Origin: a virus | Lineage: Duplodnaviria > Heunggongvirae > Uroviricota > Caudoviricetes | IMG/VR virus record: IMGVR_UViG_2585427776_000008 | Direction: 5' to 3' (one strand) | DNA: 5,349 bases | Shown here: piece by piece, positions 1-5,349 of the stretch | How the letters are laid out: every line of letters starts with the position of its first letter | Numbering within the stretch: the first letter of the stretch is position 1 | The notes under the pieces: model-generated | What the model was told of the DNA's origin: nothing | The model's database searches: none | What the model saw: the letters and a program-made list of their open reading frames with translations, nothing else | Made by a program: the position numbers and the translations under genes

Positions 1-732
1 TTTTTTCCACGTATCAAGCGTGATAGCACTCGTCACTTTGCATATGGCATTAAATGCCTCCGTTGATGGTAGTCTTTCACAGCCACGACCACCACAACGC
101 TGGCAGTCTCTGATAACAGGCATACCACGTTTTACCGACTCTTCACGATGAATGGCGACACCACGCCCACGGCAATCCTTACAGGCGGTGGAAACCTCAC
201 CCTTTCCGCCACACTCCGGACAGGCAACTTTTACCACCTCCCTGACTTTTTTCCATTCTTCCCAGTAAGACGGATACACACCTTTCGTACACTTTGCCCA
301 TACCGGCGGCTTACCATCCGGATACTGGACCTTGTTTGTAAAAACTACGCTTTCAATAAATTTTTCCCCATAGCAACAAGGGCACTGCTTTTTACTCGCT
401 GCGCTGCGGGCATAATCCTCAAAAGCGTACGAAGCCATAATGCGCATCACTACCGGTTTTATTTCTGCCGGGAGTTTTCTTAACGCCGCCACGCGATCAC
501 ACCGACTGAGTGCATATTCTGTCAGCAATTCTGTTGCCCGCTCTCTGTCATTCATACTAATGCCCATTTTCCCAAGGAACGCAGAAAACCCCATCTCAGC
601 CCGATTCTGTGTCATGCCCTGCGCGGCCATCACATCAGTGATACTCAGCGCATCTTTCGACGTTGAGGCCGATGCATCAGTCAGGCCGGGGGATTTTGGG
701 GAGTAGTATTTCGGTAAATCTTCCAGTTTCAT
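1..732 (-). CDS. Phage late-gene antitermination protein Q (Q82/QuuQ-like family), C-terminal end truncated by the window edge
   Basis: Hand translation of the minus strand from ATG at 732-730 gives 244 codons with no stop down to position 1 (MKLEDLPKYYSPKSPGLTDASAST...). It contains DnaJ-like CxxCxGxG zinc-finger repeats (CPECGGKG, CKDCRGRG, CQRCGGRG). The start overlaps the rusA stop in an ATGA arrangement. Position immediately downstream of rusA matches lambdoid gene order. Family assignment is from memory, not a search. Confidence 0.75.
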   Translation of the reverse strand, partial: MKLEDLPKYYSPKSPGLTDASASTSKDALSITDVMAAQGMTQNRAEMGFSAFLGKMGISMNDRERATELLTEYALSRCDRVAALRKLPAEIKPVVMRIMASYAFEDYARSAASKKQCPCCYGEKFIESVVFTNKVQYPDGKPPVWAKCTKGVYPSYWEEWKKVREVVKVACPECGGKGEVSTACKDCRGRGVAIHREESVKRGMPVIRDCQRCGGRGCERLPSTEAFNAICKVTSAITLDTWKK

Positions 733-1109
733 TTTTTGACCTGCCCTTCAAGCATTATGGGGTAAATCTTCACCCCCAGACGTCCACCAGATACTGGCTG
801 AGCACGAACGATATTGATTTCATCAAACTGCTCATCGTCCATTAGCAACCCCGCATGCGTCAGCGCATCCAGCGGCGCTTTCAGAATATTGTCCAGGTCA
901 CGGCGGCGCTTATCCGGTGGTTCTGCAATAATTTTTATTGCCAACCTTCCGGACAGGCTTAATTTCAGCCGCTGCTGGCGAACAATAAGCGCCACTGCCC
1001 GGCGATAACGCTCCCCGGCTTTTGATACAAAATATGTGCTGCCACGACGACGCCAGTAAGTGTTCACCGTTGGCGGGTAAGGCAAAACAAATTCTATGCG
1101 TTCAGTCAT
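729..1109 (-). CDS. rusA: Holliday junction resolvase RusA (crossover junction endodeoxyribonuclease)
   Basis: 126-aa ORF with the RusA acidic active-site region (PDKRRRDLDNILKAPLDAL) and overall similarity to K-12 RusA as recalled. Start ATG at 1109 directly abuts the TAA stop of the upstream ORF (TAAATG), with a GGAAAG Shine-Dalgarno about 7 nt upstream. Confidence 0.9.
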   Translation of the reverse strand: MTERIEFVLPYPPTVNTYWRRRGSTYFVSKAGERYRRAVALIVRQQRLKLSLSGRLAIKIIAEPPDKRRRDLDNILKAPLDALTHAGLLMDDEQFDEINIVRAQPVSGGRLGVKIYPIMLEGQVKK

Positions 1110-2165
1110 TTATGCTTTCCACTTCAAAACACCCGAATTTCTCGCGTGCATTAAAAAACGAATCAGCAACAACAGTTGGCTGCCGTGTTTTTCTTCAAAA
1201 TCTTTTACCCCGGCGTGTAGTTCGCTATGGCATTTACGGCACAGCGGAATAACAAACAAATCATCAGCCTTTGTTCCCATCCCTCCCAGTCCATGACCAA
1301 TGATGTGATGCGGATCATCTGCCTGATTGCCACACGTCATGCATTTCTGCGTTTTTACCCAACGCGTGTATACAGGCATCTCTTCCCGTTGTGATTTCTG
1401 GCGCTGGAGATACTGAGCCGGTGACTCCGGATCAACGGCAATGCTGACCACCGTCTTTTCCTGTGGCGGGGTTTGCTGGTGGGGGTGAGGCAGCGGCGCA
1501 AGATTTTTTGTGCGCTGCTTCAGTATGCTGGTGGCGGTCTGCTCTCCCGGTACGATGTCGCTTTCACGGTACATTGAGCGGATTTTTTCCGCACGCAACC
1601 CCAGCGAACGACGTAATACCGCTTCCGGTAGCGCGTCCGCCACCTGATTGCGGACCGCCCACCAGGATAATTCAGCCAGCGATAATTCCCGTTCCTGCGA
1701 GCCATTCATTGCATGGCGTATGACGTCAATCATCCATGCAAACAGGTTTTGGTGAGCAAGTTGCCCGAGTGATTCGGAGGTCTGGTCGCGCAGCTGGTTG
1801 TCGCAGTGCCAGCACAACACCATTGCGCCGGTACCATAACGGTGAATGACGGTTTCACTGTGGTGATAATCGCCGTGTGGCCACTGGCAGGATTTAACAT
1901 GGCGCAGTAACCAGTCAGACAATGCGCCAGCGCCACCAGCAGCACGAATCACTCGTTCGTCGCTGAAAAATGGCAGTAATGATTTATCCTCCGCCAGCGG
2001 CTGGCGAACGGCAGGAACGACCCCGGACGGCAGATTACGCATGCTTTTCGGTTCCGGCTCCACCAGTACCCGGGTATTGTGGAATACCGGCATGGATTCA
2101 CGGCCCGGCTTAACGATCACCAGCCCGAGTTCCGGTACCAGAACAGGTCGAAGTAATACCCGCAC
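1110..2165 (-). CDS. DUF968 family prophage protein (YdfU-like) with Cys/His-rich HNH-like zinc-binding motifs
   Basis: 351-aa ORF beginning MRVLLRPVLVPELGL, which I recall as YdfU-like. It has CWHCDNQ and CMTCGNQ...HHIIGH...CRKCHSELH motifs. The start is GTG at 2165-2163, preceded by a strong GGAGG Shine-Dalgarno 5 nt upstream that lies in the end of the preceding ORF. Confidence 0.8.
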   Translation of the reverse strand: MRVLLRPVLVPELGLVIVKPGRESMPVFHNTRVLVEPEPKSMRNLPSGVVPAVRQPLAEDKSLLPFFSDERVIRAAGGAGALSDWLLRHVKSCQWPHGDYHHSETVIHRYGTGAMVLCWHCDNQLRDQTSESLGQLAHQNLFAWMIDVIRHAMNGSQERELSLAELSWWAVRNQVADALPEAVLRRSLGLRAEKIRSMYRESDIVPGEQTATSILKQRTKNLAPLPHPHQQTPPQEKTVVSIAVDPESPAQYLQRQKSQREEMPVYTRWVKTQKCMTCGNQADDPHHIIGHGLGGMGTKADDLFVIPLCRKCHSELHAGVKDFEEKHGSQLLLLIRFLMHARNSGVLKWKA

Positions 2166-2166
2166 G

Positions 2167-2439
2167 TTACCTCCAGATGCGTTGCTGGAATGTGCGGGAC
2201 GGACGCGGTGGGCGTTCAGAGTAAGGAAGCCTGACGGAGATTATCCAGTGACGATAATCGAGGCTGAGGGCTTTCTTAATCTCGTATCCGCGTCTGCGGT
2301 AGTTATGAATTAGCCATTCGGCCTGTTCTTCAGTACATGGTGGGTGTTGGTACCAGTCGGTTTTAAATGCGTGTGAACGCCGCCCATGCCGGATGGCAAG
2401 GTCGGTATCAGAATTGTGAAATTTGGTTTTGTGCGCCAT
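2167..2439 (-). CDS. Hypothetical small prophage protein (90 aa); positional equivalent of rem in K-12 Qin, identity not confirmed
   Basis: Open frame MAHKTKFHNSDTDLAIRHG... with TAA stop at 2169-2167, one nucleotide before the GTG start of the downstream gene (translational coupling). The Shine-Dalgarno is weak and no recognisable motif was found. A candidate promoter (-10 TACAAT at 2491-2496) sits just upstream. Confidence 0.5.
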   Translation of the reverse strand: MAHKTKFHNSDTDLAIRHGRRSHAFKTDWYQHPPCTEEQAEWLIHNYRRRGYEIKKALSLDYRHWIISVRLPYSERPPRPSRTFQQRIWR

Positions 2440-2507
2440 CTGTTTTCTCTGCTGGCGCAGCAGGTGTCAGGTGTTCAGGCTGACGTGCGAATTGTAAACC
2501 AGAATGC

Positions 2508-2548
2508 CAGAAAAAAACAAACCCCGCCGAACCGGGTTAAGTGCGGGT
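2508..2548 (-). terminator. Putative intrinsic terminator at the 3' end of the hok mRNA
   Basis: On the minus strand, a GC-rich stem (CCCGC...GCGGG) is followed by GUUUGUUUUUUU (plus-strand A-run at 2511-2521), about 60-100 nt downstream of the hok stop. Confidence 0.45.
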
Positions 2549-2558
2549 GCGTTGAGGA
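2543..2558 (-). promoter_or_regulatory. fbi-like 3' element of the hok mRNA, complementary to the mRNA 5' end
   Basis: The mRNA sequence here (UCCUCAACGCACCCGC) is complementary to the predicted 5' end of the hok transcript (GCGGGUGCUUGAGG, plus coordinates 2921-2938), with an 8-bp and a 6-bp helix around a small bulge. This matches the tac/fbi long-range pairing described for hok mRNAs. Confidence 0.4.
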
Positions 2559-2606
2559 TGCCTGACACATCAGAGGTGGCGAGGGATTTCTCCCCCGCCA
2601 GGTCTC

Positions 2607-2762
2607 TTACTCCTCAGGTTCGTAAGCTGTGAAGACAGCGACCTCCGTCTGGCCGGTTCGGAGTCGTACCTCGCAGAGGTCTTTCCTCGTTACCAGTGCC
2701 GTCACTATGACGGTTAAACAGATGACGATCAGGGCGATTAACATCGCCTTTTGCTGCTTCAT
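2607..2762 (-). CDS. hok: Hok/Gef family type I toxin (HokD/RelF-like), 51 aa
   Basis: Translation MKQQKAMLIALIVICLTVIVTALVTRKDLCEVRLRTGQTEVAVFTAYEPEE is near-identical to E. coli HokD (RelF) as recalled. It has a single transmembrane helix and a TAA stop at 2609-2607. Confidence 0.9.
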   Translation of the reverse strand: MKQQKAMLIALIVICLTVIVTALVTRKDLCEVRLRTGQTEVAVFTAYEPEE

Positions 2763-2819
2763 AGCCTGCTTCCCCTTGCCTTTCGGCACGTAAGAGGCTA
2801 ACCTACATTTGTGAGACAT
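2607..2819 (-). CDS. mok: mok-like reading frame (in-frame 19-codon N-terminal extension of hok)
   Basis: ATG at 2819-2817 with a GAGG Shine-Dalgarno 8 nt upstream, same frame and stop as hok. This is the arrangement annotated for chromosomal mokC/hokC. Function is inferred by analogy only. Confidence 0.55.
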   Translation of the reverse strand: MSHKCRLASYVPKGKGKQAMKQQKAMLIALIVICLTVIVTALVTRKDLCEVRLRTGQTEVAVFTAYEPEE

Positions 2820-2824
2820 AGATT

Positions 2825-2900
2825 GGGCCTCAGATTAATGTTAAGCGTCTTGCAGGACGCGAAATGTTAACTGGGGCTTTTCTCTATCTGCCTTTCAGTG
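2825..2900 (+). ncRNA. Candidate Sok-like antisense RNA covering the mok translation initiation region (coordinates approximate)
   Basis: Inferred from hok/sok architecture: the region antisense to the mok Shine-Dalgarno and start. A plus-strand hairpin GCGTCTTGCAGGACGC lies at 2845-2860, followed by a T-rich stretch (GGGGCTTTTCTCTATCTGCCTTTC). No strong sigma70 promoter was identified; the best candidate is TTGCCT-17-TAACCT at 2776-2804. Confidence 0.3.
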
Positions 2901-2920
2901 TTCATGCCTGAGACAGATAG

Positions 2921-2938
2921 CCTCAAGCACCCGCAGCC
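2921..2938 (-). promoter_or_regulatory. tac-like 5' element of the hok mRNA
   Basis: The minus-strand sequence GGCUGCGGGUGCUUGAGG resembles the conserved 5' end of hok mRNAs and is complementary to the 3' element at 2543-2558. Confidence 0.4.
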
Positions 2939-2967
2939 ATTCTACTTAACTCACGTCACCTCGCCAA
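2939..2967 (-). promoter_or_regulatory. Candidate sigma70 promoter for the hok/mok transcript
   Basis: Minus-strand -35 TTGGCG (2967-2962), 17-bp spacer, -10 TAGAAT (2944-2939). The predicted start near 2932 would place the tac-like element at the transcript 5' end. Confidence 0.4.
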
Positions 2968-2999
2968 TATGAAATCAATCAGAAAGGTGATCCATAAAA

Positions 3000-3686
3000 T
3001 CACTCCTTCTCTTCTTTTCCGTAGTGGAGTTGGCCAATTTTGATAAGAGGGCGTCCCTGAGATTTGCGGTGTAGATTGGTATCGCGCAGAGAATACACAC
3101 AGCCACAATATTCCTGCTGATAGAATTTTTCGCGCTTGCTGATTTCAATCATACGGGACGAGCCGCCCTGCTTGCGCCAGTTATAATCCCAGTACACCAT
3201 ACCCGGATAATGCGCAACAGCTCGCCGCCCACACTCGTTAACCTGCTGCATATTTTTCCAGCGTGAAATGCCCAGTGAACTGCTGATCACACTGAAACCA
3301 TTTTCAGCAGCGTACAACGCTGTCCGCTCAAAACGCATGTCAAAACACATGGTACAACGGATCCCCCTCTCAGGCTCCCATTCCATTCCTTTGGCACGTT
3401 CAAACCAGTTGTCGGTGTCGTAATCAGCATCGATAAACGGCACGCCGTGTTGTTCAGCAAAGCGAATATTTTCATCCTTACGAATTAAATACTCTTTCTG
3501 AGGATGAATGTTCGGGTTGTAGAAAAAGATGGTGTAGTCGATTCCCGAGGCCTGAAGCGCCTCCATCACTTCACCGGAACATGGAGCACAGCAAGAGTGC
3601 AGTAGTAGTTTGTTTGCCCCGTTTGGGAGCTCCAATTTAGGCCGTTTGAAATCAGCAATAGTCATAAATATTTTTATTGGGGTCAT
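3000..3686 (-). CDS. queH: QueH-like epoxyqueuosine reductase (DUF208 family), putative prophage cargo gene
   Basis: 228-aa ORF carrying the DUF208/QueH hallmarks as I recall them: [35 protein letters not shown] and [12 protein letters not shown] (the Cys ligand set). There are two in-frame candidate starts (ATG at 3686 and 3665), both with weak Shine-Dalgarno sequences. The protein has N- and C-terminal extensions relative to the recalled core. Confidence 0.8.
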
Positions 3687-3862
3687 GAAAATAGCACAGA
3701 GTGTAGCATCAGAGCAGGGCTATCGGGAATATATGTCTAAATCTGGTAATATCTGGTTTTGACGCAAAGCGGACAACCACGCTGGCTCTACCCTGCGCCA
3801 TGAAAATGTCAATTCACATCTGAACTAATGCTCTTTAATCTAGTAACGTCTAAAATACCTAA

Positions 3863-3878
3863 GGAAGGTGCGAACAAG
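3863..3878 (+). repeat. IS5 left terminal inverted repeat
   Basis: GGAAGGTGCGAACAAG; the flanking 4 bp outside is CTAA (3859-3862). Confidence 0.9.
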
Positions 3879-3885
3879 TTCCTGA

Positions 3886-4911
<1,026 letters not shown>

Positions 4912-5042
4912 AAACCGGAAATAACGCCAGAAATGGTGGAAAAAATAGCCTAAATAGGCTGATTCGATGTGTTTGCGGGAAAAAAATCGGCCCAGATCCG
5001 AGAAATTTTAATCAGCGAGTCAGCTTGGGAAGAAATGACCTG

Positions 5043-5058
5043 CTTATTCGCACCTTCC
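5043..5058 (+). repeat. IS5 right terminal inverted repeat
   Basis: CTTATTCGCACCTTCC (reverse complement GGAAGGTGCGAATAAG); the flanking 4 bp outside is TTAA (5059-5062). Confidence 0.9.
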
Positions 5059-5097
5059 TTAAGTGACAACCCCGCTGCAACGCCCCCTGTTATCAAT

Positions 5098-5155
5098 TTT
5101 CTGGTGACGTTTGGCGGTATCAGTTTTACTCCGTGACTGCTCTGCCGCCCTTTTT
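5098..5155 (+). ncRNA. dicF: DicF small regulatory RNA (Qin prophage sRNA that inhibits ftsZ translation) with its terminator U-tract
   Basis: TTTCTGGTGACGTTTGGCGGTATCAGTTTTACTCCGTGACTGCTCTGCCGCCC followed by TTTTT matches the 53-nt DicF sequence as I recall it. The GGCGG...CCGCC terminator stem is present, and dicB lies about 170 bp downstream, as in the K-12 dicB operon. Confidence 0.8.
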
Positions 5156-5324: not shown

Positions 5325-5349
5325 ATGGAAACGTTATTACCAAACGTTA
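5325..5349 (+). CDS. dicB: Cell division inhibitor DicB, first 8 codons only (continues beyond the window)
   Basis: ATG at 5325 with a GAGGA Shine-Dalgarno 7 nt upstream. METLLPNV matches the DicB N-terminus recalled as MKTLLPNV, directly downstream of DicF. Confidence 0.7.

Follow-up and report, generated by a model that had tools for sequence, protein, structure and literature searches.

A queH gene carried as a mobile cassette in a Qin-type prophage of Escherichia coli, with a possible role in cobalamin-independent queuosine completion

Introduction

Queuosine (Q) is completed on tRNA in two steps, the first being the formation of epoxyqueuosine (oQ) by QueA and the second the reduction of oQ to Q by either QueG or QueH (PMC9508795, PMC10570037). 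QueG, the native enzyme of E. coli (YjeS), and QueH carry out the same reaction on the same tRNAs and are regarded as non-orthologous replacements of each other (PMC9508795, PMC12632869), but they are unrelated in fold and in cofactor, and only QueG requires B12. QueG belongs to the cobalamin/[4Fe-4S] enzymes, and in E. coli the reduction of oQ has been shown to require cobalamin (PMC4646009, PMC5175355, PMC11841063). Coexistence of QueG and QueH has been reported in some streptococci (PMC12632869).

The QueH of known structure is that of T. maritima (DUF208/PF02677/IPR003828; PDB 7LC5, 7LC7, 9DEU). The QueH described here has the same domain over its full length, the same fold and the same six cysteines in the CC, RCxxC and YCGC motifs, but it is only 31-33% identical to the T. 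maritima enzyme, which has CCAPD (with Asp13) where our protein, like most of the family, has CCAPC. It is also longer, by an N-terminal segment of about 16 residues and a basic C-terminal tail of about 11 residues, both of which are found throughout its subfamily; in length class and termini it is the same as the proteobacterial QueH orthologs. Furthermore, the T. maritima comparison enzyme has a housekeeping chromosomal location, whereas the gene studied here is encoded by a prophage.

As prophage cargo, the gene is best compared with the morons of lambdoid phages, such as relBE in the Qin prophage of K-12. Like these, queH occupies the slot next to hokD, varies in presence between related prophages, is dispensable for the phage and has a promoter-like element of its own upstream. 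Unlike these, which are toxin-antitoxin, exclusion or virulence cargo, queH encodes a tRNA-modification enzyme. We propose that this queH is a functional gene, captured from a chromosome together with its own promoter, and that as prophage cargo it would provide lysogens with a B12-independent route from oQ to Q. From the comparisons given below we consider this reading probable.

Results

Layout of the prophage region

The DNA analysed, referred to as the window, is a stretch of 5,349 nucleotides from a virus record of IMG/VR (IMGVR_UViG_2585427776_000008), and it is evidently a piece of a Qin-type lambdoid prophage. It contains:

1-728, minus strand: 3' part of the Q antiterminator gene, with 94.5% identity to its counterpart in the E. 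coli O104:H4 locus
729-1109, minus strand: rusA, encoding RusA (Pfam, 1.5e-16)
1110-2165, minus strand: gene for a DUF968/HNH protein (Pfam DUF968, 6.9e-64)
2167-2439, minus strand: hypothetical ORF of 90 amino acids (phrog_1212)
2607..2932, minus strand: complete hok/sok type I toxin-antitoxin locus, with the hokD coding sequence at 2607-2762 and the leader and sok extending to 2932
3000..3665, minus strand: queH coding sequence, 221 amino acids when started at the second ATG, stop codon at 3000-3002
3863..5062, plus strand: IS5-family element, ISKpn26-like, with its transposase at 3931-4911 (NCBIfam transpos_IS5_4, 1.3e-109) and terminal repeats that were read directly
5099..5150, plus strand: DicF small RNA (Rfam RF00039, 76.7 bits, full length)

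The hok product matched Pfam HOK_GEF (1.6e-22), and sok matched Rfam RF01794 with 120.5 bits (2757-2932, model positions 1-157 of 157). The Qin-type flanks are 97-98% identical to the hokD and dicF-dicB regions of K-12 Qin, with 98% for the dicF-dicB flank, where DicF is now joined to the queH region via IS5. These matches, together with that of the IS5 transposase, bear out the preliminary description of this DNA, which had placed the gene as cargo between hok and IS5 in a Qin-type lambdoid prophage. It had also placed relBE in this slot of K-12 Qin, and hokD-relE-relB was indeed found there. Since the homology between the window and K-12 ends at 2776, inside the hok leader (blastn), relBE in K-12 replaces both the sok/mok leader and queH.

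In E. coli O104:H4 the same arrangement is found in a full prophage integrated beside ompW, where queH has hokD on one side and, on the other, the DUF977 (Ren-like) gene that closes the replication module. Among 80 IMG/VR prophage loci fetched as encoding the identical QueH protein, DUF977 was upstream of queH in at least 78, ending 178 bp from it in 75. A survey of queH next to hok, which had been suggested beforehand, found hok downstream in about 56 of these loci, 240-241 bp away in 52 and at exactly 241 bp in 46. In the Rac-like prophage and the plasmid contexts of queH (see below) hok is absent. We considered a functional link between queH and hok and rejected it, since hok adjoins queH only in the Qin-like backbone; hok/sok is part of that backbone and lies outside the queH cassette.

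The IS5 element sits 197 bp upstream of the queH start and marks the left end of a 3.9 kb deletion. Three complete genomes carry IS5 at this position too, where it interrupts the 3' end of DUF977 as a simple insertion; a simple insertion with a DUF977 remnant is found in strain DLI.5a. In the window, however, the right flank of IS5 corresponds to the O104:H4 locus from position 19754 onward instead of 15864 onward, which means that about 3.9 kb is missing. The segment lost carried DUF977, an O-like replication gene, ydaT, cro-like and cI-like regulators and ydfA-C. IS5 is flanked by unequal 4-bp sequences, CTAA to its left and TTAA to its right, a mismatch that fits a deletion or a recombination between two IS copies and not simple transposition. 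By this comparison the window prophage is defective, its immunity and replication genes having been removed by an IS5-associated deletion. With the repressor, cro and replication genes deleted, queH is cut off from the phage early-right promoter, which leaves its own putative promoter and IS5 read-out as the only sources of expression.

The queH reading frame and its termini

The ORF listing gives an ORF that spans exactly 3000..3686, starts with ATG and encodes 228 amino acids. It had been reported earlier with its QueH motifs and with no strand given; it is on the minus strand, and every motif quoted is present in the translation, with CCAPC at residues 32-36, FYNPNIHP at 55-62, RCTMC at 110-114 and YCGC at 193-196 (228-aa numbering).

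Translation of queH most likely starts at the second ATG (3665), giving a protein of 221 residues, and the in-frame ATG upstream of it, at 3686, is probably unused. The identical RefSeq protein (WP_000150294.1, 221 amino acids) starts at the second ATG, and in our alignment the QueH alleles and orthologs all begin with MT[IVT]... or at the equivalent position, while the Rac-like, plasmid and Scandinavium copies have ATT or ACA in place of the ATG at 3686. On reading the sequence, no recognisable Shine-Dalgarno sequence was found before either ATG. Since the upstream ATG is not conserved and both RefSeq and the orthologs start at 3665, the seven additional residues represent an over-long ORF call.

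Beyond the question of the start codon, the N-terminal segment contains R, L and P residues that are invariant in the proteobacterial subfamily, and the C-terminal tail (RDTNxHRKSQGRxxIKxGxxYYG) is kept from Enterobacterales to Lysobacter. The orthologs are 214-222 amino acids long. Because they are conserved across the subfamily, the terminal extensions are normal features of proteobacterial QueH. The extensions that the preliminary description had left unexplained are therefore accounted for by a seven-residue choice of start codon and by conserved termini. The basic nature of the C-terminal tail would be compatible with a role in tRNA binding.

Identity of the protein

Against the Pfam QueH family PF02677, whose curated cut-off is 23.5 bits, the protein scored 221.5 bits (E = 1.1e-65). 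The match covers residues 27-201 and profile positions 1-174 of 175, and goes far past anything that a chance reading frame would give. A phmmer search of the PDB matched T. maritima QueH (7LC5) with E = 7.8e-22 (residues 27-203 against 4-178), and the PDB sequence search returned only T. maritima QueH (7LC5 and related entries). In NCBIfam there was no QueH match at E <= 0.01, the library apparently being without an HMM for the family, since PGAP names the identical protein QueH. Full-length comparison with the chromosomal QueH proteins of Scandinavium, Kluyvera, Enterobacter, Erwinia, Serratia, Providencia and Photorhabdus gave identities of 79-92%.

A MAFFT alignment of the query with 12 proteobacterial QueH sequences and that of T. 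maritima showed six invariant cysteines, C32, C33, C111, C114, C194 and C196, so that the ligand set is retained on proper alignment, T. maritima included. We take these conserved cysteines to be metal ligands. C32 aligns with T. maritima C9, the position of a deposited C9S mutant, and C36, the third cysteine of CCAPC, takes the place of T. maritima Asp13, for which a D13N mutant was deposited; that both mutants were deposited implies that the depositors regarded both positions as functionally important. Position 36 was surveyed in the 150 best 50%-identity cluster representatives, which are 37-82% identical to the query. Among the 107 that cover the motif, 103 have CCAPC and 3 have CCAPD. In this sample a cysteine at the position of Asp13 is a normal variant of the family and not a loss, although the solved active site is not copied exactly.

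The AlphaFold2 model of QueH, built from an input of 18 sequences, was of moderate confidence (pLDDT 72.9, pTM 0.74). With this model, the top five Foldseek matches in the PDB were T. maritima QueH entries (E = 5e-11 to 1e-9, TM 0.80-0.83 on the target), four of the five having TM 0.81-0.83, and the runners-up were adenine-nucleotide-alpha-hydrolase (AANH) folds of the TtuA/LarE type. The QueH (DUF208) assignment, which had been made from motifs, thus stands by profile, by sequence match and by the comparison with the T. maritima structure, and we regard it as nearly certain that the window protein is a true QueH.

A true QueH could nevertheless have been recruited to other 7-deazaguanine chemistry, such as phage DNA modification, or to an anti-phage or anti-defence role, as phages reuse enzymes of 7-deazaguanine metabolism for modifying their DNA, and defence systems reuse them too (PMC6884629; PMC13639016). 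We consider this very improbable. The protein has no domain beyond those of the housekeeping chromosomal QueH to which it is so similar, and the survey of phage 7-deazaguanine genes reports no QueH in DNA-modifying phages (PMC6884629). No DpdA/Tgt, FolE or QueC/D/E is annotated in the O104:H4 prophage or in positions 1-39,697 of the 45,272 bp of phage HannyBb, a check that rests on annotation and ORF sizes and not on a profile search of every ORF. PADLOC gave no match for QueH, for the DUF968 protein or for the 90-aa ORF.

Distribution and existing annotation

By megablast, queH is present in 995 of 5426 complete E. coli genomes, the carriers including O104:H4, some O157:H7, ST131, APEC and environmental strains. 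Essentially full-length copies account for 985 of the 995, and 707 are at least 99% identical. All 5426 genomes contain queG, in agreement with the earlier statement that E. coli normally uses QueG. In E. coli queG is therefore core and queH accessory, and since queG is universal, queH is always a second oQ reductase in this species.

The RefSeq label on the matched feature is 'epoxyqueuosine reductase QueH' throughout. The preliminary description had considered the gene potentially novel, with the proviso that common annotation in E. coli prophages would remove the novelty, and with 995 complete genomes so annotated this suggestion fails; the identity of the gene is already known at scale, and the gene call as such adds nothing.

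Origin, mobility and selection

When one genome per species was taken, 79 of the 80 species-representative loci had no lambdoid neighbours around queH, the only one with such neighbours being that of E. albertii. The nearest QueH proteins outside phages are those of Scandinavium (92% amino acid identity), Kluyvera (91%) and Enterobacter (88-90%), and in Enterobacter sp. ECC-175 the neighbours of queH are chromosomal genes for a pseudouridine synthase, icd, chorismate mutase and a GGDEF protein. Apart from the Qin-like backbone, queH was found in a Rac-like prophage adjoining trkG, on Klebsiella IncF plasmids, where it is flanked by genes for TonB fragments, and on a Salmonella IncFII plasmid beside fecC and fecE. 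Of 50,697 phage records one has a close copy, Escherichia phage HannyBb, an isolated lambdoid siphovirus with a complete genome.

The limits of the DNA shared with the window were determined by blastn as 2996-3714 for the Rac-like prophage, 2996-3715 for the Scandinavium chromosome, 2993-3730 for the Klebsiella plasmid, 2996-3761 for the Salmonella plasmid and 2994-3781 for HannyBb. Common to all contexts are thus the coding sequence and 50-115 bp upstream of it, with almost nothing downstream (window 2996 to 3714-3781). From these boundaries, queH evidently travels as a cassette that includes some 50-115 bp of its native upstream DNA, and has entered two lambdoid backbones, one isolated phage and plasmids of Klebsiella and Salmonella.

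Comparison of the window allele with the other mobile alleles by the Nei-Gojobori method gave the following values:

Phage HannyBb allele: dN/dS 0.046, dS 0.29
Rac-like prophage allele: dN/dS 0.052, dS 0.45
Salmonella plasmid allele: dN/dS 0.039, dS 0.49
Klebsiella plasmid allele: dN/dS 0.027, dS 1.5

With dN/dS at 0.027-0.052, QueH is, on this measure, under strong purifying selection while mobile, which argues against a decaying passenger.

These data bear on the possibility that queH is a neutral hitch-hiker, captured recently from a chromosome, having no role beside QueG and kept only because the prophage family that carries it is successful. That queG is universal in E. coli and that queH lacks a Shine-Dalgarno sequence would both be in keeping with this, and the 707 of 995 copies with at least 99% identity are consistent with the recent spread of one prophage lineage. 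However, alleles on different mobile backbones that have diverged to dS 0.29-1.5 keep dN/dS at 0.03-0.05, the occurrence of queH in Qin-like and Rac-like phages and in IncF plasmids, each placed independently, speaks for repeated retention, and only 10 of the 995 copies are not essentially full length. Neutral carriage therefore seems unlikely to us, and a functional gene retained as cargo remains the reading that we prefer.

The conserved upstream region

Two features lie upstream of queH in the window:

3666..3781, minus strand: non-coding block travelling with queH, of which the minimum shared extends to about 3714 and the maximum to about 3781
3700..3708, minus strand: extended -10-like element (TGcTACACT) that precedes the queH start codon by about 35 nt, a putative queH promoter

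In the alignment of upstream regions, CTGATGCTACA did not vary among the queH copies from phages, plasmids and the Scandinavium chromosome. The Scandinavium version of the extended -10 element is TGcTACAAT, and TACACT or TACAAT is found at the same distance in chromosomal queH copies of Kluyvera, Enterobacter, Symbiopectobacterium and some Erwinia. From this conservation we propose the element as a putative promoter of queH. On the queH strand a generic promoter scan returned no strong sigma-70 site, the element having been passed over for want of a -35 match. In the queH leader, a permissive Rfam scan revealed neither a riboswitch nor any other RNA family, the only matches of the whole scan being sok, DicF and a sub-threshold STnc100, and inspection of the conserved block by eye for Fur-, Zur- and IscR-type sites gave nothing convincing. 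In other backbones a hairpin (CACGCC..GGCGTG) follows the queH stop codon; in the window it is absent, and a generic scan of positions 2400-4000 found no terminator-like site. Taken together, the conserved element and the limits of the cassette suggest that queH was taken up with its native promoter, and that it could be expressed independently of phage transcription.

The alternative is that QueH is an active oQ reductase which serves the phage, being expressed with the early-right operon after induction and tuning the decoding of NAU and NAC codons in the late genes. It is true that in intact prophages queH lies within the cro-O-nin-Q transcription unit and in the same orientation, and that in the window no terminator separates it from its neighbours. 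Against this, the fraction of NAU was 0.567 in the late genes of HannyBb and 0.619 in the host gene sample, and hence there is no enrichment, and a difference in decoding between oQ and Q is not established. Moreover, queH keeps a conserved -10 element of its own, spreads on plasmids, which have no lytic cycle, and is intact in the window prophage in spite of the loss of repressor, cro and replication genes. We therefore think a role in the lytic cycle improbable, somewhat more so than neutral carriage, and consider below what a QueH serving the lysogen would do.

Discussion

To our knowledge, E. coli has no de novo synthesis of B12, and its cobalamin must be imported. Since QueG needs this imported cobalamin, a prophage-encoded QueH would free the completion of queuosine from the supply of B12, a lysogenic-conversion role that the preliminary description had already suggested and that we consider the best explanation. 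The following sequence of events is proposed. The queH gene would have been captured from a chromosome of the Enterobacteriaceae with some 50-115 bp comprising its own promoter region, and it would now reside as dispensable cargo in lambdoid prophages, at the junction of the replication genes with the nin/hok region. Its product would be a cobalamin-independent, iron-sulfur oQ reductase. In a lysogen, this enzyme may act on the host tRNA-Asn, tRNA-Asp, tRNA-His and tRNA-Tyr that already bear oQ34 made by QueA, and would reduce the epoxide of oQ34 to yield queuosine. In the window prophage, the enzyme would presumably be produced from the queH promoter itself or by IS5 read-out. Expression and activity of QueH in lysogens seem to us fairly probable.

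Since every carrier also has queG, QueH would be redundant whenever B12 is available, as may be the case in the gut. A benefit could arise in B12-poor niches, or after loss of the B12 receptor BtuB through selection by phages or colicins. We put at about even the chances that, in roughly one of five E. coli strains and in certain Klebsiella and Salmonella, a self-promoted QueH cassette acquired on a prophage or plasmid uncouples queuosine completion from B12. If so, this would be a lysogenic-conversion trait that acts on the translation apparatus of the host, and not one of virulence or phage exclusion. It would also offer a testable case in which mobile elements alter the oQ versus Q status of host tRNA according to the availability of a cofactor. 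Conclusions on queuosine that are generalised from K-12, which is without queH, may fail for about 18% of E. coli strains.

Independently of its activity, a housekeeping tRNA-modification enzyme circulates here on temperate phages and plasmids among enteric bacteria that already have the B12-dependent isozyme. A full-text search, with the primary QueH papers outside its scope, found no paper discussing prophage-borne QueH copies in E. coli, and the published survey of viral 7-deazaguanine genes found no homologs of QueA, QueG or QueH (PMC6884629). The annotation of phages lags behind that of bacterial genomes in this respect. In PHROGs the QueH family is phrog_3217, of 'unknown function', with a truncated profile that begins at residue 34, beyond the CCAPC motif, and in HannyBb the gene is labelled 'hypothetical protein'; with annotation in this state, surveys of phage genomes can miss queH.

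Alternative cargo in one slot

The hok/sok locus of the window is complete, with positions 1-157 of the 157-position sok model matched. When window 2513-2932 was compared with the Qin prophage of E. coli K-12 (L002 15025-15289), the homology was found to stop at window 2776, which means that K-12 hokD is without the leader present in the window and that relBE is found there instead. This is one slot with alternative cargo, either queH or relBE. A further small gene lies on the other side of hok:

2167-2439, (-) strand: ORF of 90 aa, flanked by hok and the DUF968 gene

This ORF had no Pfam matches and matched phrog_1212, a family of unknown function, at 2.2e-36; it is kept in nearly all prophage loci that carry queH.

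In the alignment of queH loci (A3), a hairpin, CACGCC...GGCGTG, is found 3' of the queH stop codon in Escherichia phage HannyBb (L084 ~5622-5995), the Rac-like prophage, the plasmids and Scandinavium; the same alignment has none after the stop codon in the window lineage, where a promoter-like site of hok (2967-2939) is located ~30 bp from the queH stop. Since the hairpin is absent and the hok site is so close, it may be that queH transcripts read through into hok in this lineage.

The IS5/dicF junction

The region between queH and dicB contains the following features:

3863-5062: IS5-family element, with 4-bp flanks at 3859-3862 and 5063-5066
3859-4134, (-) strand: 91-aa ORF inside IS5, crossing the left IS5 end outward, toward queH
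5099-5150, (+) strand: DicF sRNA, full length, 76.7 bits
5162-5302, (+) strand: STnc100 match, sub-threshold (38 bits against a gathering score of 47 bits)
5326 onward: start of dicB, with its ATG at 5326

The upstream region of queH is fused directly to dicF through the IS5-family element, the 4-bp flanks of which differ (CTAA versus TTAA), and DicF is followed by the sub-threshold STnc100 match and then by the dicB start. Compared with intact relatives, ~3.9 kb is absent from the window prophage, and with it DUF977, an O-like gene, ydaT, the cro-like and cI-like genes and ydfA-C, leaving the prophage without immunity and replication functions. None of the complete E. coli genomes of the collection had the same junction. 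IS5 insertions can activate neighbouring genes.

queH on plasmids and in Enterobacter

In partial gene tables of two IncF plasmids, queH is flanked by TonB-family gene fragments in Klebsiella pRHB38-C06_2 (L086 5344-8001) and adjoins the iron-dicitrate transport genes fecC and fecE in Salmonella pCFSAN024441_02 (L087 2157-6660). It is possible that plasmid queH is linked to TonB-dependent uptake of iron or B12. In Enterobacter sp. ECC-175 (L092 2906-9420), the chromosomal copy lies ~1 kb from icd. Lambdoid elements use icd as an attachment site in E. coli, and the proximity might therefore give a clue to how a phage acquired queH, although the search for phage genes within 6 kb came up empty.

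Active-site residue and annotation of QueH

Residue C36 (228-aa numbering; codon ~3579-3581) aligns with Asp13 of T. maritima QueH, for which a D13N mutant has been deposited. Amongst the 107 nearest cluster representatives covering the motif, this position is Cys in 103 and Asp in only 3. The solved T. maritima enzyme has the less common residue at this position of the active site.

There is also an annotation gap for queH in phage resources. The gene (3000-3665) matches the PHROGs family phrog_3217 at 1.7e-138, the label of which is "unknown function" and the profile of which begins at residue 34, past the CCAPC motif, while the copy in HannyBb, an isolated phage (L084 6001-6687), is annotated "hypothetical protein".
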